DNA of 64,000 nucleotides, from the sequence record MK962758, one strand, 5' to 3'. The stretch comes from Shigella phage JK55. The notes below the pieces were generated by a model. That model did not search any database. It saw only the letters and a list, made by a program, of their open reading frames with translations, and had not been told where the DNA came from. The position numbers and the translations under genes were made by a program. Position 1 is the stretch's first letter, and every line of letters starts with the position of its first letter. Positions 5,365-59,639 of the stretch are shown here, one piece after another.

Positions 5365-5386
5365 GGCTCCTTCGGGAGCCTTTTTC
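5365..5386 (+). terminator. rho-independent terminator (GGCTCC-TTCG-GGAGCC + TTTTT)
   Basis: Perfect 6-bp GC stem, UUCG loop, T-run. Confidence 0.75.
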
Positions 5387-5404
5387 ATTTCAGGAGATTG
5401 TTAA

Positions 5405-5752
5405 ATGACATTTAAAGAGTTCTGTCAAGCTACTTTCATAATTGTTTTCTTAGTTGGGGCAGGTGTCTGGGGAGGATACTCTTACAGAGACTATCAAGTT
5501 GCTGAAGCTGAGCTAAATAATGAGAAACTAATAAGTGTTGCCAAAGATGCTTATCAGGAAGGTTTAGCCACACTGAGCACCAATTACAAAAATGATTTGA
5601 AAGATGTGCTTGCTAAGAATAAGCACACAAAAGAGGTACTAACATATGAAAAAACTAAGCCAGAGTTTTATAATGTTTGTGTTACTGATAATTATGTCAG
5701 GGTGTTCAACGAACAAAGTGAACAGTACATTCAAAAACTCCCAAGTAAGTGA
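5405..5752 (+). CDS. i-spanin candidate (Rz-like, N-terminal TM anchor)
   Basis: Single N-terminal TM helix (FIIVFLVGAGVWGG) then charged helical periplasmic domain; 3' end overlaps a lipoprotein ORF in another frame (classic Rz/Rz1 overlap). Confidence 0.45.
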   Translation: MTFKEFCQATFIIVFLVGAGVWGGYSYRDYQVAEAELNNEKLISVAKDAYQEGLATLSTNYKNDLKDVLAKNKHTKEVLTYEKTKPEFYNVCVTDNYVRVFNEQSEQYIQKLPSK

Positions 5753-5915
5753 GAGTGATAAGTACACTCAAGAAGATTCAAGATTCACTATCAAAGGTAA
5801 TACTGGTAGTGATGTGGCAGCAGCCCTTGAGTTCTATCGTGATGGATTTTACCAGTGCACAATCAAAGCTAATAACCTTATTGATATGATTTTATTAGGA
5901 AATAAACAGCAATGA
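5646..5915 (+). CDS. o-spanin candidate (Rz1-like outer-membrane lipoprotein)
   Basis: Signal peptide with lipobox IIMSGC; starts inside 3' end of the preceding TM-protein gene in a different frame. Confidence 0.45.
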   Translation: MKKLSQSFIMFVLLIIMSGCSTNKVNSTFKNSQVSESDKYTQEDSRFTIKGNTGSDVAAALEFYRDGFYQCTIKANNLIDMILLGNKQQ

Positions 5916-6712: not shown

Positions 6713-6905
6713 CTTCTGCAAAGACTGTTCTATCGAAATGTTCGGACGTGATACAGGTGACTTAAAAGGTCTTATCACTGAAGATGACTTTAAAGCTGGC
6801 TATGCAATGCCAGTAATCTGTGAAGGTTGTGGGTGCATCTGGGTAGACCACGAAGGACAGCGTGTAAAACCTTCAGAAGATAAAGAATCTTGGGAGAGAT
6901 GTTAA
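6705..6905 (+). CDS. hypothetical small Cys-rich protein (CxxC...CxGCGC)
   Basis: Internal ATG at 6705 with AAGAGG RBS about 10 nt upstream; contains CKDC and CEGCGC motifs (possible Zn binding). The ORF track start at 6627 overlaps the upstream gene extensively. Confidence 0.4.
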   Translation: MADFCKDCSIEMFGRDTGDLKGLITEDDFKAGYAMPVICEGCGCIWVDHEGQRVKPSEDKESWERC

Positions 6906-7691
6906 ATGGGTATTGTAAAAATCATCAATGGCGATATCTTTGCCGCATTTGATAAAGGTAAGTTTGACATCATTGGTCACGGTTGCAACTGTATGAATTT
7001 AATGGGTGCAGGTATCGCTGACAAGATTTCTAAACTTTACCCAAAAGCATATGAGACCGATACAGAAGTTTATCTATATGCAGGTGGTATAGGTCACAAA
7101 CCCTGTGAGAATTTACTAGGTAATTTCTCTGTAGCACGCTTAAAACAAGGTCGTATAGCTAACCTTTACACTCAGCTTAAGACTGGTAAAGATGCACGAT
7201 ACAGTGTTTTAGAGTCATCTTTGAAACAGCTTAACAGATACTGTGAAGTTAATCAGTTGAAGAAAGTTGGTTTACCTATGATTGGTGCAGGTATCGGTGG
7301 GCTGGACCCTCAAGCTGTCACAGTTATCATCAATCAGGTGATGAAGAGTGTAGATGTTTATCTGTATGTCTATGAAGGCGAGATGTACCACAAGTTACGC
7401 TCAGGTTGGAAGAACTACTGTGAACCAGAATACTTTGCAGGTGTAGCAGTGTTCACGGATAACGCAGTTACCCTCTTCAGACGAAGAAAAGGTAAGATAC
7501 ATCAAAGTAACCCTCCGGTTGAAAAGATGTCTCTAGGTAATGCTCTAGTTACCCACCTGTCGAAGAGCAATCACAGAATGGCTGTGACATTTGGTAGTGA
7601 TGCAGAAGCTTATATCTATGCAAGAACTGATGAGGATATCGAGGCAATCTTCTCTTCACCAGAAGTTACCTTCTTAGACGCAAAGAACTAA
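6906..7691 (+). CDS. macro-domain protein, TARG1/OARD1/DarG-like (ADP-ribose processing)
   Basis: N-terminal 160 aa show GDIF...HGCNCxNLMGAGIA...LPMIGAGIGGL...VYLYVY, matching the TARG1-type macro-domain pattern (GDLF, MGAGIA, MPRIGCGLDRL); about 100 aa of C-terminal extension unassigned. Confidence 0.55.
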   Translation: MGIVKIINGDIFAAFDKGKFDIIGHGCNCMNLMGAGIADKISKLYPKAYETDTEVYLYAGGIGHKPCENLLGNFSVARLKQGRIANLYTQLKTGKDARYSVLESSLKQLNRYCEVNQLKKVGLPMIGAGIGGLDPQAVTVIINQVMKSVDVYLYVYEGEMYHKLRSGWKNYCEPEYFAGVAVFTDNAVTLFRRRKGKIHQSNPPVEKMSLGNALVTHLSKSNHRMAVTFGSDAEAYIYARTDEDIEAIFSSPEVTFLDAKN

Positions 7692-7760
7692 GAAACTCTG
7701 TAGAATATTCACAATAGACTAAGCCTTTCTTATCTGGTAAATTTTTCAGGTAAGGAGGGC

Positions 7761-7943
7761 TTTTTCATTTCAGGATTGTGCAGGTATATTTCTATAGAGA
7801 AATCTGTAGAGAAAATTTTGAACTCCAAAGAGAAAATTCATTTTCAAACTGTGCAGGTAATCTCCAAAGGGCTTTTTCATTTTCAAAACGTGCAGACCCC
7901 GCTCAGGTCGGGCAAGAAAAATCATTTTAGAATTGTGCAGGTA
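7761..7943 (+). repeat. four direct copies of about 22-bp motif TTCATTT(T)CAnnA..GTGCAGGTA in intergenic region
   Basis: Copies near 7765-7786, 7838-7860, 7876-7896, 7922-7943; a fifth partial copy follows the terminator at 5380-5394. Confidence 0.6.
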
Positions 7944-7967
7944 GGTTTTTATAGAGAGCCAGACCAA

Positions 7968-7998
7968 CCCCTCTCCCCCTCTTACTCCCCCTCTCCCC
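7968..7998 (-). other. G-quadruplex-forming motif on minus strand (GGGG-AGA-GGGGG-AGTAAGA-GGGGG-AGA-GGGG); C-rich i-motif strand on plus
   Basis: Plus strand reads CCCCTCTCCCCCTCTTACTCCCCCTCTCCCC; four C/G tracts of 4-5 with loops of 3, 7, 3 nt in an otherwise AT-rich intergenic region. Confidence 0.6.
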
Positions 7999-8119
7999 AA
8001 AAGTCAAGAGAAAAATTTGTAGCGGATTGAAAAATAATTCTTGATTTGTGTTCTGTTTTGTGGTAGTCGTGTGCGCCCGTTTCATTACAGTTTTGCCAAA
8101 GATATTTTTAAAATTTTTC

Positions 8120-8179
8120 TTGACTCTTTGAACGGGGTTATCTAGTATTTGCATCAACGGGGAGGGAATGACCTTCCCC
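8120..8179 (+). promoter_or_regulatory. type-A early cassette: promoter (TTGACT-17-TAGTAT) plus 5'UTR hairpin GGGGAGGGAATGACCTTCCCC and GGAG RBS
   Basis: -35 at 8120-8125, -10 at 8143-8148, hairpin 8159-8179, conserved tail ACTAAATAAAGTCCTAAACTGGAGATTCAAAAATG to start 8212. Confidence 0.6.
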
Positions 8180-8211
8180 ACTAAATAAAGTCCTAAACTG
8201 GAGATTCAAAA

Positions 8212-8592
8212 ATGAAATATCGTGCGCCTAAATTCATCAACAAAGACAACTTTCGTAGCGTACTGGAGAAGTCACTTGATGAAAATTTCAAAGGTAATGT
8301 GATTGTTGTTCACTCGTTCAATTTTAAGTATGATATCAACGGGAATAAAATCAACCATTACACGGCAACCATGTTAGATGGCACTCTTTCAAGTGAAAAA
8401 ACAATTCTACATGCACTTGCTGGGCGTGGAAAAAACCTGATAAGATGCGATAAGAGACGTTATCAGGGTGGCGCATATGGTTACGATGACGCTATTTATC
8501 ATCTTGAAAATATGGGCTATCAAGTAGAAAAAGCTGGAGTATCACAAATCATCGGGAGCGATGGTTATGTAACAATCTTCAAAATTAACTGA
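8212..8592 (+). CDS. hypothetical small early protein
   Basis: ORF directly behind type-A cassette with GGAG RBS 8 nt upstream. Confidence 0.6.
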   Translation: MKYRAPKFINKDNFRSVLEKSLDENFKGNVIVVHSFNFKYDINGNKINHYTATMLDGTLSSEKTILHALAGRGKNLIRCDKRRYQGGAYGYDDAIYHLENMGYQVEKAGVSQIIGSDGYVTIFKIN

Positions 8593-8600
8593 TAAAGTAC

Positions 8601-8636
8601 TTTACAAGGGGCTTATAGTTCGATAAAGTAAGCCCC
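8601..8636 (+). promoter_or_regulatory. type-B early cassette: TTTACA-17-TAAAGT promoter-like element overlapping hairpin GGGGCTTA...TAAGCCCC
   Basis: -35-like TTTACA 8601-8606, -10-like TAAAGT 8624-8629, 8-bp stem hairpin 8608-8636, then AGATAAAGAGCTTTACCACT..GGAGA..ATG. Confidence 0.5.
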
Positions 8637-8681
8637 AGATAAAGAGCTTTACCACTCAATCCTAAATTGGAGAACTAAAAA

Positions 8682-8939
8682 ATGGCTATTATCAAAAACG
8701 TTGTAGTTACTGCAAAGACTCGCGATGACGCTCGCATTATGGCTAAAAAGTTATGCGGAAAAGTGGTTGACAACGGAAAACAATCTGCTGTAAGATGGGG
8801 CGTAAAGGCTGATAAACAACTAACCTTAAAACGCAGTTCAAACAACCTTTTTAAAGGTGTAAAATCACTCGGTAAAGTGAACGTCTTTACCAAAAAAGGC
8901 TATAAAATGCACTTATCATTAACTGGCAATTTAATCTGA
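8682..8939 (+). CDS. hypothetical small early protein (basic, 85 aa)
   Basis: ORF behind type-B cassette. Confidence 0.55.
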   Translation: MAIIKNVVVTAKTRDDARIMAKKLCGKVVDNGKQSAVRWGVKADKQLTLKRSSNNLFKGVKSLGKVNVFTKKGYKMHLSLTGNLI

Positions 8940-8947
8940 TAAAGTAC

Positions 8948-8983
8948 TTTACAGGGGGCTTAAAAGTTGATATCTTAAGCCCC
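8948..8983 (+). promoter_or_regulatory. type-B early cassette (TTTACA-17-TATCTT; hairpin GGGGCTTAA...TTAAGCCCC)
   Basis: Same architecture as 8601-8636 with 9-bp stem. Confidence 0.5.
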
Positions 8984-9027
8984 AGATAAAGAGCTTTACC
9001 ACTAAATCCTAAACTGGAGATTCAAAA

Positions 9028-9540
9028 ATGAAAACTGTAGACGCTACCTTTGAAGTTGTAAAAGAAAAATTCACCATTATTTATGAAGCTGTCAATTGCT
9101 TTGAAGCAAGCCATAATCTCGATAATTGGGAGTTTACAAACGACCATCAAGGCGGTGTGACTGTTAAAAATCCTAACTGTCAGCATAATGATTTTAAATA
9201 TGCAATCCCTTTGCATTACAGCCTTAAACAGCTTTCAAGTGACTATGCAAAACAAGGCCGCGATAATCCATCGAAAGAGGCTTACACGAGCTTACAGAAA
9301 GAACTAGAAAGAGATTTAGAGGCTTCAGAGTATAACCTTGCCGCGAAAGTTGTGGATGCAAACGGTAACACGGTTTTAGAAAGTTTTTATCTTGGTTATG
9401 CTTTCGATTGGTGCTATCGTGACGGCGATGATTTAGAGGATAGACTAAAAGAAGAGGTGAACAACGCAGACGCAGAATCTGAAGTATTAGAACGTTTGGA
9501 ATCATTGAAAGACTCAGTGATGAATATCTTTAAGAACTAA
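9028..9540 (+). CDS. hypothetical early protein (170 aa, acidic C-terminus)
   Basis: ORF behind type-B cassette. Confidence 0.55.
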   Translation: MKTVDATFEVVKEKFTIIYEAVNCFEASHNLDNWEFTNDHQGGVTVKNPNCQHNDFKYAIPLHYSLKQLSSDYAKQGRDNPSKEAYTSLQKELERDLEASEYNLAAKVVDANGNTVLESFYLGYAFDWCYRDGDDLEDRLKEEVNNADAESEVLERLESLKDSVMNIFKN

Positions 9541-10343: not shown

Positions 10344-10616
10344 ATGTATACTACTAACAACGGTCGCACCTTAAACGTAACCCTGCGCCACTATGTGAAC
10401 GGTGTAATGCACTTCGAGGATTTACAAGCCGAACAACATATTCTGAATTGGCAACTTGCAGGGCTGCAAAAAACTGCTACAGGATACGGTAAAAAGATTC
10501 CAACTAGTTGGAAAGTATACTACGAAGGCCGTTTGCGTAGAATTTATCAAGATGTACACAGCAATAGCGCAACAAGTTACATCATGGTAAAAGGTAAAAA
10601 GCTGCATTTAGTATAA
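10344..10616 (+). CDS. hypothetical small early protein
   Basis: ORF behind type-A cassette. Confidence 0.55.
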   Translation: MYTTNNGRTLNVTLRHYVNGVMHFEDLQAEQHILNWQLAGLQKTATGYGKKIPTSWKVYYEGRLRRIYQDVHSNSATSYIMVKGKKLHLV

Positions 10617-10621
10617 AGTAC

Positions 10622-10657
10622 TTTACAAGGGGCTTATAGTTCGATAAAGTAAGCCCC
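10622..10657 (+). promoter_or_regulatory. type-B early cassette (identical hairpin to 8608-8636)
   Basis: AAGTACTTTACAAGGGGCTTATAGTTCGATAAAGTAAGCCCCAGATAAAGAGC repeated. Confidence 0.5.
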
Positions 10658-10702
10658 AGATAAAGAGCTTTACCACTAAATCCTAAATTGGAGAACTTAA
10701 AA

Positions 10703-11107
10703 ATGGCTATTAATAACCGTGAATTATCAATTTTAAAAGCACGTTTGACCGTTAACCGGATTAATGTCATCACGTCATCAGCACCAGATGAAACACTGCA
10801 AAACATTATTGGGAAGATTCAAAGTGTTATCTTAGACGTTGAAAGCGTAAAAAATTCATTGGCTGACGTTGCAGCAGGTATCACACTAGACGGTGCGCAA
10901 TATGAAATGTCCGACATGTTAGGCAAATCTAAGGTAATGAATAAAGAGTTAGATTTGAAAATGTTCCGATTTGCTGTTAAAGTGTGGCTATCTGTCGAGT
11001 ATGATGCTAACTTTGCAATCGCTGACTTTTTCGCCACTTGGTTGCAGCGTAATTTGACTAATCATGACTTCCGCGATATCTGTGATGCAATTTATGCAGA
11101 ACTCTAA
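10703..11107 (+). CDS. hypothetical early protein
   Basis: Start chosen at ATG 10703 (conserved GGAGAACTTAAAAATG context) rather than the track ATG at 10688, which lies within the RBS region. Confidence 0.5.
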   Translation: MAINNRELSILKARLTVNRINVITSSAPDETLQNIIGKIQSVILDVESVKNSLADVAAGITLDGAQYEMSDMLGKSKVMNKELDLKMFRFAVKVWLSVEYDANFAIADFFATWLQRNLTNHDFRDICDAIYAEL

Positions 11108-11116
11108 AAAATTTTG

Positions 11117-11176
11117 TTGACACTGGTTTTTAGATAGATTAAATTACACATCAACGGGGAGGGAATGACCTTCCCC
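11117..11176 (+). promoter_or_regulatory. type-A early cassette (TTGACA-17-TAAATT; hairpin GGGGAGGGAATGACCTTCCCC)
   Basis: -35 11117-11122, -10 11140-11145, hairpin 11156-11176. Confidence 0.6.
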
Positions 11177-11208
11177 ACTAAATAAAGTCCTAAACTGGAG
11201 ATTCAAAA

Positions 11209-11412
11209 ATGGCTATTATTAATGGTTTAACCATTGAAACTACACACATCAAAGATATCAAAGTTGGTGATATAGTCCTTTCCCACGGCGTAGAAAAAAC
11301 TGTCACTGCAAAGGATATCAAAGAGGATTCTTTCATGGGTAGGACTCTCTTCGGTGATTCTTATTGCTTAGGCTATCTTGCAGTTTTAAAAGTTGTCAAA
11401 AATAACAAATAA
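11209..11412 (+). CDS. hypothetical small early protein (67 aa)
   Basis: ORF behind type-A cassette. Confidence 0.5.
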   Translation: MAIINGLTIETTHIKDIKVGDIVLSHGVEKTVTAKDIKEDSFMGRTLFGDSYCLGYLAVLKVVKNNK

Positions 11413-11416
11413 AGTA

Positions 11417-11452
11417 CTTTACAAGGGGCTTAAAAGTTGATAACTTAAGCCT
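11417..11452 (+). promoter_or_regulatory. type-B early cassette (hairpin GGGGCTTAA...TTAAGCCTC)
   Basis: Same architecture; one stem mismatch. Confidence 0.45.
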
Positions 11453-11497
11453 CAGATAAAGAGCTTTACCACTAAATCCTAAACTGGAGATTCAAAA

Positions 11498-12040
11498 ATG
11501 AAATGTTTTCACGGAACTACTCAAGAAAATTTCCTCAACCTGATTAATAACGGTGATAAACCATCAGGCGCATGGAATTGTTCGGATATGGACGGCAATT
11601 TTTACGTGTATCCAGAAAATAAAATCTATGGCGACGATGAGGAAGAGATAACATCAGAAGGCATCCAGCAAGCTCTAGGCAATGCCACTATCACCGCAGC
11701 TTTTCAGATGAAGACTCAAAATATTGTTATCTTAGAACTCGATATTCCAGAGGATGAGCTGAATGACGATTATTATTGTGATAATATGTCGAGTGTAGCA
11801 AGTTTTACAGAGTACTTTGATGTAAATTGGATTAAAAAGGTCTATACAACAGAGTTTAACGCTATGTATTCACCTTTTTGTCTTCCTTCATTGGATAACC
11901 CAAATTTAAACTATCTTGATGAGTCTCTGGAGCTTCTTGCTAAAAGTGTTCAACAGTCGGACAGTATTCAGGTTTTTTGTGACATCATGGACACGCTGAC
12001 AGGAAACATCACAGAAGAGGATTTAAAGAGCTTTTTCTAA
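11498..12040 (+). CDS. hypothetical early protein (180 aa, acidic)
   Basis: ORF behind type-B cassette. Confidence 0.55.
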   Translation: MKCFHGTTQENFLNLINNGDKPSGAWNCSDMDGNFYVYPENKIYGDDEEEITSEGIQQALGNATITAAFQMKTQNIVILELDIPEDELNDDYYCDNMSSVASFTEYFDVNWIKKVYTTEFNAMYSPFCLPSLDNPNLNYLDESLELLAKSVQQSDSIQVFCDIMDTLTGNITEEDLKSFF

Positions 12041-12340: not shown

Positions 12341-12397
12341 ACAAGCCTGATAAAAGTCTGTAAATTGTCAATCAACGGGGAGGGAATGACCTTCCCC
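12338..12397 (+). promoter_or_regulatory. type-A early cassette (TAGACA-17-TAAATT; hairpin)
   Basis: -35 12338-12343, -10 12361-12366, hairpin 12377-12397. Confidence 0.55.
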
Positions 12398-12432
12398 ACT
12401 AAATAAAGTCCTTAAACTAGGAGATTCCAAAA

Positions 12433-12774
12433 ATGGCTTATGTAACCGTAATTACCGATAAAGCTGGCGCATCTTGGTCAACTCAGGTTAGTGATAAGAT
12501 GTCGCCTATGCAGTGCCTAAAATACTTTGAACAGTGGAACAAAGGCGAGGACACAAGCCCCTTTCAAGTGATGCAGATTATCCATGTAGACAACGAAGGG
12601 AAGAAAACAACTCTGAATAGTGAGTACTATGCAAGCCGTTTTGAAACGAGAAGTAAAACAATGAAGCTTCTACGTGAATCCGGTTATACCCATATCGCCG
12701 CGTTAATCTGGGATGACCTTCTAAAAAGTCAACGTATCAGCTATGTAAAGCCTGAAAAAATATTCATCAGTTAA
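12433..12774 (+). CDS. hypothetical early protein (113 aa)
   Basis: ORF behind type-A cassette. Confidence 0.55.
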   Translation: MAYVTVITDKAGASWSTQVSDKMSPMQCLKYFEQWNKGEDTSPFQVMQIIHVDNEGKKTTLNSEYYASRFETRSKTMKLLRESGYTHIAALIWDDLLKSQRISYVKPEKIFIS

Positions 12775-14347: not shown

Positions 14348-14389
14348 AAATGCTAGCCCCCTTAACAATTTCTTAACAATCCCTACATA

Positions 14390-15051
14390 GTTATGCTTTT
14401 AAGGCACTTGTTAGCAACTTGTTAGCCCCTTGTTAAATCTCTGTTAAGACCACGTAAAAGCCTTGTAAGAGTCTTTGACATAGCCTTTAAAGCTTCTGTA
14501 AAGCCTTATAAAAAGGTGTCTGTATAGTTGGGCTGTAGATACTAGGAAGAGACTTAAAAGAGCTTACAAGGAGCTATAGAGAGCTTTTAAGAGGGCTATT
14601 TAGAGATTCACTAGGGATTGGTAACAATACCAATTAAGAGGGAAAGGGAACGATAAGAAAAGAGTAGTGACCATGTTAACAACTTGTTAAAAAGATTAAA
14701 CACTTGTTAGGAACTTGTTAATTATCTTAACAAAATAACTCTTAACATTTAACTACTTAGCTCTTGTTAGTCATCTGTTAAGATTCTGTAAAGCCTATTC
14801 AGCAACTGTTAAGATTCTGTTACATCCTTGTTAGTTCTGTTAAGAATCTGTTAAGGCCTTTGAAGATTTGTTAAGAGCTTGAGAGAGTTGTTAAGAGATT
14901 GTTAAGGATATTTTAAAATTTTGCAAAGTACTTGTAAGGGAGTTGTTAAGGGCTACCAAGCAGATATACATCCTAATCAGATATTTTTCAGTTCCTTCAA
15001 AGACCCTAAAAAATGACTTGATAGCTCTATTTTATAAAAATTTTAAGATTC
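14390..15051. repeat. 662-bp tandem direct repeat, copy 1 (iteron-rich)
   Basis: Sequence from 14390 repeats at offset 662; all line-by-line spot checks identical. Confidence 0.85.
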
Positions 15052-15713
15052 GTTATGCTTTTAAGGCACTTGTTAGCAACTTGTTAGCCCCTTGTTAAAT
15101 CTCTGTTAAGACCACGTAAAAGCCTTGTAAGAGTCTTTGACATAGCCTTTAAAGCTTCTGTAAAGCCTTATAAAAAGGTGTCTGTATAGTTGGGCTGTAG
15201 ATACTAGGAAGAGACTTAAAAGAGCTTACAAGGAGCTATAGAGAGCTTTTAAGAGGGCTATTTAGAGATTCACTAGGGATTGGTAACAATACCAATTAAG
15301 AGGGAAAGGGAACGATAAGAAAAGAGTAGTGACCATGTTAACAACTTGTTAAAAAGATTAAACACTTGTTAGGAACTTGTTAATTATCTTAACAAAATAA
15401 CTCTTAACATTTAACTACTTAGCTCTTGTTAGTCATCTGTTAAGATTCTGTAAAGCCTATTCAGCAACTGTTAAGATTCTGTTACATCCTTGTTAGTTCT
15501 GTTAAGAATCTGTTAAGGCCTTTGAAGATTTGTTAAGAGCTTGAGAGAGTTGTTAAGAGATTGTTAAGGATATTTTAAAATTTTGCAAAGTACTTGTAAG
15601 GGAGTTGTTAAGGGCTACCAAGCAGATATACATCCTAATCAGATATTTTTCAGTTCCTTCAAAGACCCTAAAAAATGACTTGATAGCTCTATTTTATAAA
15701 AATTTTAAGATTC
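15052..15713. repeat. 662-bp tandem direct repeat, copy 2
   Basis: Identical to 14390-15051 in every segment compared. Confidence 0.85.
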
Positions 15714-57780: not shown

Positions 57781-57963
57781 AATGACCTCAAAGTTATATT
57801 AAATTTTGTATTACATTGAGTATAAAAATAAGCTATAACACCTGACTTGTCAACAGATTTTATAGCTTATTTGGCAGATTTTTTATAAGGCTACTGCCAT
57901 CCTTCCATACCAAACCCTACCGAACAGAACCATGCTTTGCCATACTGGACAACACCTGACCAG

Positions 57964-58003
57964 ACATCACTTAAAAACCCTTTCAAAGACTCTTAAGTGA
58001 TGT
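57964..58003. repeat. inverted repeat hairpin ACATCACTTAA-N18-TTAAGTGATGT, copy 1
   Basis: 11-bp perfect arms. Confidence 0.7.
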
Positions 58004-58247
58004 AATCGAATTTTAATGTAGCTCCGATTAACTACCCATACCTTGCATTACTTCACCAAACCGTACATTACTTCACCAAACCATACATTACCAGACCATG
58101 CCACACCTGTCCAAACTCAACCTCATTAAAAGACCCTGTTTAAAGACCTTTTAAAAAGGTAAGTCTCATTTTAATGTAGCTGAGACTAACTACCCATACC
58201 AAACAGCACCGCACTATGCCTTACCCCACCTCACCGAGCCTCGCCCC

Positions 58248-58289
58248 ACATCACTTAAAAAACCCTTTTCAAAGACTCTTAAGTGATGT
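58248..58289. repeat. inverted repeat hairpin ACATCACTTAA-N20-TTAAGTGATGT, copy 2
   Basis: Same arms and near-identical loop as copy 1. Confidence 0.7.
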
Positions 58290-58502
58290 TGGTGAGTACC
58301 CGTTGGTTTATGCTGCTCAGTATACTCACCAAATTTTCTATGTCAACAACTTTTTATAAAAAGTTCTGATAGCTATATGTGTCACGAAACAAAAGATTGT
58401 AAACAAGACACCCATTGCAAAAGATGTGTCCAAAAGCTTACTTGCAACATATGACAATACAAAGACAACCAGTATAAACATAATGACTGTACTGAACATA
58501 GT

Positions 58503-59639
58503 TTACTCATAATCCCTAATAACTAGCCCAACAGGAAACTGTAAAGAACCCTTACGAGTCATCTTCTGGAACTGAACCGTTAAAGGTTTCCCGATAAACT
58601 CTTCAGGATGCTCAGCAAGATACTGTTTCTTCTCATGAGTAGTCTTCCATGAGACATCTACAAAGACGTTAGGAAGAGTCTCTACAACGAACTTACCGTG
58701 ACCACGTTTATCGGTCTTGACACCAGTCACTTTAAACTCTTCAGTGTGCATCTTCTTGTGCTTAATCAAGAAGTATGAACGGTGACAACACTCATAGAAG
58801 GAGTCTTCAGAGATTGAACGGTACATTGCACCTTCAAACTTAGCTTCAACCCACTTATCATGAGCTTCATCAAACTCTTCCCAAGAATTTACACGACGAG
58901 ATTTAACAGGGACAACTTTACAGCCGTCTCTAAAGTCATTCAATGGTGAAGTCTCAATAATATCTCTACGCTCAGGCCACGTTTTAGTACTGTCACAGAT
59001 ATCATACCAGTAGAACTTAAGTAAGTGTCTGTCAGGATTGTCTTCATTTTTAATCATGGAGACAATATCTTCTAAGTCCCACCCATGAGCATAAATCTCT
59101 CCATCAAATTCATCAACATCTTTGTGGAGCCTTAACATTGCCATAATGTCAGGTATTAGTTCAGTAGGGATTTTGTAAACAGTATTCTCACGAGAATATG
59201 CTGTAAATACACTGCCAATACTTAAGTGTCTTGAAATTCTACAACGTACACCATCAAGTTTTGGTTGAGCATCAGCAGGGAACTTCAGATACTTTGCATG
59301 ACTAACCTTTGCAGCATCATGAGCAAGTTGTACACCTACTTTCTCAGTATTCTTTGCAGACTCTTTTGTGTAAGCGTAGCCTTTACGGTCAACTTGCTTT
59401 TTATACTTAGCAGCAACTTCAAAGAGAGCTTGCTGTTCAGCGTTACGCTCATTCTTTTTACCGATGTTTTTCGGTTCTGCTGTGTACTCTTCAAACATCA
59501 TCTTGCCATTTTCTTTACCATAGGTTGTAATAACTTTGTCACCTACAGCAACGCATGACCAGACGTTGAAAGAGCCATCTTTATTTTGTTTGTATAGGAT
59601 TGTCATTTTTATTCCTCTGAGTGATACCAAGTATTGCAA
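58503..59639 (-). CDS. ATP-dependent DNA ligase
   Basis: Adenylation motif I KLDGVR (AQPKLDGVRCRIS); 378 aa. Confidence 0.75.
   Translation of the reverse strand: MQYLVSLRGIKMTILYKQNKDGSFNVWSCVAVGDKVITTYGKENGKMMFEEYTAEPKNIGKKNERNAEQQALFEVAAKYKKQVDRKGYAYTKESAKNTEKVGVQLAHDAAKVSHAKYLKFPADAQPKLDGVRCRISRHLSIGSVFTAYSRENTVYKIPTELIPDIMAMLRLHKDVDEFDGEIYAHGWDLEDIVSMIKNEDNPDRHLLKFYWYDICDSTKTWPERRDIIETSPLNDFRDGCKVVPVKSRRVNSWEEFDEAHDKWVEAKFEGAMYRSISEDSFYECCHRSYFLIKHKKMHTEEFKVTGVKTDKRGHGKFVVETLPNVFVDVSWKTTHEKKQYLAEHPEEFIGKPLTVQFQKMTRKGSLQFPVGLVIRDYE

Follow-up and report, generated by a model that had tools for sequence, protein, structure and literature searches.

The 64,000-nucleotide stretch of Shigella phage JK55 DNA analyzed here (sequence record MK962758; hereafter the window) carries an array of four direct repeats between positions 7761 and 7944, within a 520-bp intergenic gap (7692-8211) that separates the gene for a macro-domain protein from a run of small early genes. 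The array is non-coding and direct, occurs at this locus only, and keeps its sequence and spacing among relatives. These features suggest that it probably consists of DNA-level sites, or iterons, for a sequence-specific protein of some kind, in agreement with the "multiple binding sites for a regulator" proposed in a preliminary description made from the letters of this DNA. The role that we tentatively favor, and consider possible, is that of a replication-origin-type assembly site; protein binding, the binder, and the replication role are all inferred here from comparisons of DNA sequences.

The four repeats share the core TCATTTY-N6-GTGCAG(GT), which starts at 7765, 7838, 7877, and 7922, always on the + strand. 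Repeat 1 (7761-7787) comprises a T5 tract and the core TCATTTCAGGATTGTGCAGGT (core, 7765-7785). The full unit of repeat 2 (7823-7860) reads CTCCAAAGAG, AAAAT, and the core TCATTTTCAAACTGTGCAGGT (7838-7858); that of repeat 3 (7862-7897) reads CTCCAAAGGG, CTTTT, and the core TCATTTTCAAAACGTGCAGAC (7877-7897); and that of repeat 4 (7907-7944) reads GTCGGGCAAG, AAAAA, and the core TCATTTTAGAATTGTGCAGGT (7922-7942). Copies 1, 2, and 4 extend as GGTA, and copy 3 reads GTGCAGACC. Comparison with relatives shows that the unit is longer than previously described: (G)ACTCCAAAGRG is followed by a 5-nt A or T tract, TCATTTY, about six weakly conserved A/T-rich bases, and then GTGCAGGT. Copies 2 and 3 show this full unit, as does copy 4 in the Suspvirus and Mooglevirus-like relatives. 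The information content is highest in two blocks, TCATTT and GTGCAG, which lie approximately one helical turn apart, and an A5 or T5 tract stands directly 5' of each site, with all copies in the same orientation. The long spacer between repeats 1 and 2 contains a small tandem repeat of TCTATAGAGAAA (7791-7814, + strand; Tandem Repeats Finder period 12, 2 copies, 91% match). The TCTATAGAGAAA repeats are possibly the 3' remnants of decayed copies; units in Kolesnikvirus are spaced 37 nt apart, about half the 73-nt gap that separates repeats 1 and 2 here.

When up to two mismatches were allowed, the pattern TCATTTYNRRAWYGTGCAG matched exactly four sites in the 64 kb (7765-7783, 7838-7856, 7877-7895, and 7922-7940), compared to a chance expectation of 0.22 from dinucleotide shuffles, and none of 100 shuffles reached four. 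The four direct repeats of the preliminary description are thus borne out at their places, and a separate repeat search of the window recovered the same repeat families (D1-D3). For the stretch 6900-8600, megablast matched 232 phage records, nearly all of them Felixounavirus, with Escherichia phages radambza (97.7%) and HY02 (97.5%) as the top matches; over the intergenic part alone, HY02 is 99.4% identical. By these matches, the window belongs to Felixounavirus (Felix O1-type), with HY02 as its nearest relative and a full genome of about 86 kb.

The window and the other 26 kb of HY02 were scanned with a weight matrix derived from 57 distinct repeat copies of related phages. The four copies scored 36.0, 36.4, 31.8, and 37.3 bits in order, that is, 31.8-37.3 bits, and the next best site reached 12.5 bits. 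No further copy was present in either part, so the motif is not equally frequent in coding regions, the outcome that had been named as one that would speak against the repeats. Since the motif is unique to one locus, it is not a general promoter, terminator, or other recurrent signal. The layout is of the iteron type: several direct repeats with 19-21-bp cores, within the roughly 17-22 bp expected of iterons, in one orientation at a single locus, with 3-5 copies in every lineage examined.

The conservation of the array was assessed in loci taken from IMG/VR via the neighboring macro-domain protein. The array was found in all 27 Ounavirinae loci recovered, with four exact-pattern copies in 20 and three in the other seven, in which the fourth copy has a point mutation or a short deletion or is cut by the contig end. 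Even where the macro-domain protein is only 63-69% identical (Mooglevirus-like and Suspvirus loci, including phiSUSP1), the spacings of 73-77, 39-41, and 45 nt as well as the copy order and orientation are kept; the spacers of these loci diverge and carry indels. In the SUSP1 genome (NC_028808.2), the four copies are calculated to occupy positions of about 65766-65950. The majority fractions were 0.91-0.98 for the cores and the CTCCAAAG boxes, 0.65-0.84 for the spacers, and 0.84 for the end of the macro-domain gene. Among 17 sequences from at least three genera, 14 of the 21 core columns of repeat 1 are invariant, 12 of 21 in both repeats 2 and 3, and 15 of 21 in repeat 4; the box is invariant in 12 of 15 columns, both for repeat 2 (CTCCAAAG) and for repeat 3. 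As judged from these alignments, the array is under strong purifying selection across the subfamily Ounavirinae, and no other conserved non-coding element in the examined part of the genome is as conspicuous.

The array is also recognizable at greater distances. For the Kolesnikvirus Salmonella phage ST-3, in which the macro-domain protein is 44% identical over 58%, the gap contains a terminator, four copies of TTTTTCATTTTCAATTTGTGCATAG spaced 37, 37, and 39 nt apart, and a C-rich tract. One of the ST-3 flanks recognizably matches a flank in the window: GGTCGGGCAAGAAAAATCATTTT, beside repeat 4, reappears as GGTCTGGCAAGAAAAATCATTTT at copy 3 of ST-3. In a divergent 88-kb contig, about five copies of AAATTCATTTTAAAAACGTGCATAG follow the macro-domain gene, and A/T-rich TTAACA repeats with a period of about 11 bp come after them. 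In a paired-motif scan of IMG/VR, true arrays occurred only in 84-94-kb Ounavirinae contigs, the other matches being coding or simple tandem repeats. The same type of scan over 185,579 species genomes gave 43 matches, all in unrelated taxa and none titled Enterobacterales, and blastn against 5,426 complete E. coli genomes gave no match to the array. A binding protein would probably be phage-encoded; the 3' end of the motif (GGT or TAG) varies by phage lineage and not by host.

Individual contigs showed further variation. The IMG/VR contigs L231 (93.8 kb) and L133 (84.4 kb) have only three copies, 75 and 45 nt apart; their DNA upstream of the array is unlike the 3' end of the macro-domain gene in the window, and copy 1 abuts a terminator-like hairpin. 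For contig L194 (IMG/VR 3300045988_063805), the array is followed on the - strand (offsets 5610-5760) by about 150 bp of A/T-rich DNA with TTAACA every ~11 bp, a stretch that resembles an unwinding element or a second protein-binding array.

Several other identities of the array were considered and rejected. A protein-coding gene was rejected, since the candidate reading frames are disrupted in relatives. Two small open reading frames (ORFs), at 7778-7930 (+) and 7927-8085 (-), overlap the array and the conserved block that follows it and are annotated as hypothetical proteins. The + strand ORF corresponds to wV8 gene 13, for which similarity to Felix O1 AAQ14612 has been noted; it contains stops and non-triplet length changes in six of seven distant relatives, with a frameshift in wV8 as well. 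The - strand ORF corresponds to Pr103Blw_00144; its ATG is lost in three of the seven, and its C-terminal half shifts frame or allele.

A structured RNA or antiterminator was rejected as well, as there is no conserved or covarying structure on either strand. RNAalifold on 13 sequences gave -23.0 kcal/mol for the + strand (337 columns; covariation term -0.89, one of 50 pairs changed on both sides) and -8.1 kcal/mol for the - strand (covariation term +0.24, no pair changed on both sides). Rfam gave no credible match, the best E-values of 0.65-0.85 being far below the gathering scores. For a sigma-70 promoter array, just copy 1 matches at 9 of 12 positions (TTTTCA-17-TATATT), with none at copies 2-4, and its -10 element is not conserved, TATATT becoming TAGAGT, TAAAAG, or other forms in relatives. 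By eye, none of the sigma-54, sigma-32, sigma-E, CRP, LexA, and ArgR consensuses fits, nor do those of Fur, Fis, IHF, Tus/Ter, KOPS, and Chi; these comparisons serve as leads only.

A DnaA-box cluster (TTWTNCACA, at most one mismatch) was rejected because each of the four copies in the window has three mismatches; boxes with at most one mismatch have a chance background of 2.5 per kb. A CRISPR was rejected as well, as the units abut, the DNA between repeats is conserved rather than unique, and Rfam gave no credible CRISPR match. A terminal repeat or packaging (pac) site had been suspected from two GenBank records and several IMG/VR contigs that end near the gap, but the terminal repeat is 6.4 kb away. 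The records of phages Andreotti and EC106 and the IMG/VR contig L009 end in or at 7968-7998, and three more contigs end up to ~120 bp beyond. These ends resemble assembly breaks, since they are scattered from 7980 to 8106 and further, in DNA of low complexity or with repeated promoters.

On the upstream side, the array is bordered by the intrinsic terminator t13 (7721-7769, + strand), which ends the upstream operon and whose T-tail, CTTTTTCATTT, merges into copy 1. The t13 hairpin (7721-7762) has 17 pairs, with an energy of -23.6 kcal/mol and z = -7.0; a terminator is annotated at this site in wV8, KhF3, and ASO1B and is named t13 in Felix O1. In the Suspvirus and Mooglevirus-like loci, the 5' arm differs (AGCCCTCC...GGAGGGCT) and the 3' arm is unchanged. 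A hairpin is therefore kept in these loci.

On the downstream side lies a C-rich tract, CCCCTCTCCCCCTC-TTA-CTCCCCCTCTCCCC (7968-7998), which is a 31-nt perfect homopyrimidine mirror repeat of the H-DNA type and whose - strand holds a G-quadruplex motif, the sole one when the window is taken together with the rest (26 kb) of HY02. This tract follows the array in most lineages, including the Suspvirus and Mooglevirus-like loci and Kolesnikvirus. It is followed by a conserved A/T-rich block, AAAAGTCAAGAGAAAAATTTGTAGCGGATTGAAAAATAATTCTTGATT (7999-8046), with a mean majority fraction of 0.94 and 24 of 48 columns invariant. The block contains weak promoter-like hexamers on both strands, TTGACT (8007-8002), 17 nt, and TAAGAG on the - strand and TTGATT (8041-8046), 17 nt, and TAGTCG on the + strand; neither pair passes a promoter consensus scan. 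The first strong sigma-70-type early promoter (8120-8148, + strand; TTGACT-17-TAGTAT) is preceded by an A/T-rich tract, lies outside the repeat array, drives the first early gene (ATG at 8212), and is an annotated promoter in phage ASO1B. The gap between t13 and the early promoters is probably little transcribed.

These surroundings bear on the possible role of the array in replication. In the proposed scheme, proteins on the four sites would nucleate a nucleoprotein complex marking a replication-origin-type site, and the C-rich/G-quadruplex tract, the A/T-rich block, and the adjoining strong host-type promoters would aid initiation. Iteron origins and transcription-activated phage origins work in this way. 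Non-coding, genome-unique direct-repeat regions have repeatedly proved to be origins, as for ori-lambda, P1 oriR, T4 oriE, the SPP1 ori, and the lactococcal ori/per, and origins are typically single-copy, as are pac sites. An origin is favored here because the array occupies one locus per genome, because its direct repeats with A/T tracts lie in a terminator-to-promoter gap, and because unusual and A/T-rich DNA and strong promoters adjoin it. The best 40-120-bp segments in 7692-8211 are at the 97.1-99.5th percentile of low duplex stability.

Other observations weigh against an origin. The least stable DNA of the window is at 14.7-16.2 kb, in and just past the terminal repeat, and no inflection of GC skew was seen at the locus, transcription direction dominating the skew in the genome. 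Pfam detected no DNA-binding or Rep domain in the products of the flanking genes, and no initiator was identified. The phage primase-helicase is of the T7 gp4 type (Toprim and DnaB_C), and T7 gp4 itself is not known to recognize iterons. Within the loci compared, the DnaA-box resemblance is limited to Kolesnikvirus. In addition, unrelated sequence replaces the C-rich tract in one Felixounavirus clade, and the tract is therefore dispensable in some relatives.

The close rival to the origin reading, rather unlikely in our estimate, is an operator or insulator, in which a phage protein would bind the four strong sites cooperatively and switch the first early promoters off or on. The protein might spread or loop to weaker look-alikes at 8029-8050 and 8080-8095 and might block read-through from upstream. 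The position of the array, which heads the early cluster 98 bp from a promoter-like -35 element (8041) and 177 bp from the strong promoter (8120), is consistent with such a role, and weak repeat resemblances (D2 and D5 families) overlap the promoter-proximal DNA. The look-alikes, with the weak D2-family resemblance at 8029-8050 among them, are, however, non-significant and score <8 bits, and the strong promoter lies 180-360 bp away from the strong sites. The placement of four sites between two blocks of expression also recalls the phi29 p4/p6 switch region; phi29 p4 sites are inverted repeats that overlap or adjoin the regulated promoters.

Temporal control is a further point in favor of an operator: in Felix O1, reverse-transcription PCR shows that the genes flanking the array are expressed at distinct times, with ORFs 16 and 20-22 of the early run peaking at 5 min. 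Conversely, the downstream early genes largely have their own copies of the promoter module, none with the repeat, so that the reach of one array upstream would be limited to the first promoter or promoters. The DNA between array and promoter also differs between genera while the array is kept. The absence of the motif from the early promoters and the 100-360 bp between the strong sites and the first promoters weaken the operator reading.

Another alternative, which we regard as very unlikely, concerns DNA entry. The window contains an exact 662-bp tandem duplication (14390-15051 and 15052-15713), which matches at ~86% the PhageTerm-defined direct terminal repeat (DTR) of Pr103Blw. The reported DTRs are 608 bp for UAB_Phi87 and 581 bp for Pr103Blw, the latter mapping to 14361-14957 and 15069-15619 of the window. 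Both terminal repeats thus appear to be joined head to tail, with the physical ends at ~15051/15052. If the repeats are joined in this way, the right physical end is 7.1 kb (~8% of the genome) away from the array, and the terminal repeat 6.4 kb. The early-gene end, a 7-kb right segment, could then enter the cell first, and transfer could pause at the array until early proteins are made, as in a T5-like injection stop; the polar array, perhaps with the G-quadruplex/mirror-repeat tract, would be the cis-acting stop signal.

Between the array and the end, the DNA is mostly taken up by small ORFs, all read toward that end and many equipped with a sigma-70-type promoter of their own; the array is conserved while the early ORFs vary, and the direct orientation of all its copies would fit a polar signal. 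The T5 DNA transferred in the first step amounts to 7.9% of that genome, the essential pre-early genes dmp, A1, and A2 are transcribed toward the near end, and the boundary is the untranslated Repeat Region 3, which is conserved better than the ORFs (Davison, bioRxiv 10.1101/866236). The low standing of a T5-like stop has three grounds: two-step transfer was reported for no Felix O1-like phage in the literature searched; the T5 region is far more complex, with several direct-repeat families, inverted repeats, palindromes, and paired DnaA boxes, the last of which have no counterpart in the window; and the 8% figure may be a coincidence. Should an entry checkpoint nevertheless prove true, a second phage group would share a mechanism so far regarded as particular to T5-like phages, which would be a real surprise.

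An element acting at the RNA level is similarly improbable. In this case, the region would be transcribed and the repeated words would act in RNA, as protein-binding sites or as a sponge, with transcripts arriving rightward by t13 read-through or from the weak copy-1 promoter, or leftward from TTGACT-17-TAAGAG (8007-7979). The leftward promoter-like site is similarly placed in all Felixounavirus, Mooglevirus-like, and Suspvirus loci, with an invariant -35 element, and Kolesnikvirus has a better leftward site, TTGACC-18-TATACT, as read by eye; the 9/12 promoter match in the window spans copy 1. Against this, the leftward hexamer pairs fail the consensus scan in the window, and the copy-1 match is not conserved. 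The - strand has no canonical terminator, the + strand has a strong one directly upstream, and neither strand shows conserved structure, covariation, or an Rfam family.

The interpretation of the repeats as tandem terminator/antiterminator units, each composed of a hairpin and the motif, was the other suggestion of the preliminary description, and it is close to excluded. A strong terminator does stand directly before copy 1, whose T5 tract is the terminator tail, and the box CTCCAAAGRG could be a hairpin-arm remnant, as the terminator arm of distant relatives reads GCCCTCCAAAG. The hairpin and T-run said to precede each copy were confirmed, however, for copy 1 (t13) only. The segments ahead of copies 2, 3, and 4 (-2.2, -2.3, and -7.6 kcal/mol; z = +1.0, +0.9, and -0.6, respectively) show no better folding than shuffles, and a terminator scan lists just the 7721 and 5364 terminators as hairpins here. 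T-runs precede copies 1 and 3, whereas copies 2 and 4 have A-runs instead. With three of the four copies lacking a significant hairpin, no covarying pairs, and no credible Rfam match, the repeats do not behave as such units. Because the motif is confined to this locus of the genome, arrays of this kind are likewise absent from the other terminator-like sites (5-12 kb) and from the 19 tabulated Felix O1 terminators.

A related copy that had been proposed at 5380-5394 has no GTGCAG half and scores <8 bits; its likeness to the repeats is limited to the terminator tail CTTTTTCATTTCAGGA. The AGGAG within CTTTTTCATTTCAGGA is the ribosome-binding site (Shine-Dalgarno) of the gene starting at 5405, and the CAGGA letters of copy 1 are not conserved in relatives. 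The earlier placement of the array in a leader holds insofar as it lies upstream of the early genes; given a distance of 98-177 bp or more to the nearest promoter-like sites, it is no leader, or transcribed 5' region, in the usual sense. Functionless relics of local terminator-tail duplications are likewise close to excluded: turnover is suggested by the presence of only three copies in some lineages, by point mutations in single copies, and by the possibly decayed copies of the long spacer, but copy sequence, order, orientation, and spacing are kept where the flanking protein is only 44-69% identical, and the cores are conserved better than the adjacent coding sequence.

The upstream neighbor of the gap is the macro-domain protein gene (6906-7691, 261 aa; Pfam Macro, PHROG 335), which is labeled "phosphatase" in many public records. 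Its downstream neighbor is the first in the run of small + strand early genes (ATG 8212), many of which possess their own sigma-70-type promoter. The promoter/5'-UTR (untranslated region) module of 8120 recurs before later early genes, as seen from the DR repeats of wV8 and from internal blast matches. Such modules lie at 8100-8211, 8580-8690, 8930-9035, 10610-10712, 11115-11213, 11396-11503, and 12361-12438; they contain an A/T tract, TTGACT-17-TAGTAT, a GGGGAGGG...CCTTCCCC hairpin, and a Shine-Dalgarno sequence, and they correspond to DR_1 to DR_9 of wV8. The modules look like joints for the exchange of early-gene cassettes, and KhF3 and others carry an additional 483-bp early-gene cassette directly after the first module. 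The 483-bp length difference of some relatives is thus this extra cassette after the promoter and not a change in the array.

The gap was also compared with the vrRNAs of VIPR systems, which consist of runs of YNNGG pentamers with a conserved tail (phage SUSP1, bioRxiv 10.64898/2026.04.26.720920). No run of at least five YNNGG units is present in 7692-8211, and the array is therefore not of this kind. Elsewhere in the window, a VIPR-like non-coding stretch of ~550 bp (57790-58340, - strand) follows the DNA ligase gene (58503-59639) and an ORF of 53 aa. The stretch opens with a TTGACA-17-TATACT promoter and has three YNNGG runs (~58189-58263, 58056-58125, and 57900-57949), the first two of which share the tail GTAGTTARTC..AGCTACATTAAAAT; it fits the published description of the SUSP1 VIPR guide RNA (bioRxiv 10.64898/2026.04.26.720920). 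A total of 230 phage records contain similar DNA, at widely differing identity; of the 25 records listed, nearly all leave it unannotated. No vipr gene was identified in this analysis.

The array is present in 226 deposited phage records. In the public records inspected, it lacks annotation or has wrongly been given that of a small ORF, and the wV8 record has no repeat annotation. No description of the repeats was found in the Felix O1 or UAB_Phi87 genome papers or in the other literature searched, nor was a description of a replication origin or of transcript maps for the genus.

What is new here is a cis-acting direct-repeat array, a member of the known protein-binding arrays by its layout, with a function that is inferred. 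Felix O1 and its relatives are classic Salmonella-typing phages that are widely used for biocontrol and therapy; the Felix O1 genome paper states that the temporal regulation is not understood. The array offers a short, defined target for pull-down, footprinting, and mutagenesis, which could reveal an origin or a master early regulator, and it should stay intact when Felix O1-like phages are engineered.

Compared with known systems, the array shares individual features with several of them. For intrinsic terminators and nut/put antiterminators, the likeness is confined to copy 1, which abuts a true terminator, and to the T-runs before copies 1 and 3; copies 2-4 have no hairpin, RNA structure is not conserved, and the motif is absent from other terminators. 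For DnaA boxes, the 3' half TGTGCATAG of Kolesnikvirus ST-3 is one mismatch from TGTGNATAA in all four copies, whereas the window and all Felixounavirus, Mooglevirus-like, and Suspvirus loci have the 9-mer TGTGCAGGT, with three mismatches, and the best-conserved half, TCATTTT, lies outside the DnaA box.

The T5 injection-stop region likewise has conserved untranslated repeats ~8% from a physical end, bordering small promoter-rich early genes that are transcribed toward that end and are less conserved than the repeats. It differs in that the present array is a single 180-bp family without DnaA boxes, with a 662-bp terminal repeat 6.4 kb away. The phi29 p4/p6 region also has four sites with A/T tracts in a short intergenic region between differently timed units, but the sites of the present array are asymmetric, direct, and 100-360 bp from the promoters.

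Iteron origins differ from the array in that no initiator gene was identified beside it, its spacing of 37-45 nt is out of helical phase, its neighboring DNA is not the least stable of the genome, and its motif has no sequence similarity to ori-lambda, P1 oriR, T4 oriE, SPP1, or the lactococcal origins. The likeness to these origins lies in the arrangement: direct repeats of ~20 bp, three to five in number and all oriented alike, at one locus per genome and in a non-coding setting, with A/T tracts beside each site and A/T-rich DNA and promoters nearby. Ori-lambda, for its part, carries four O-protein sites.

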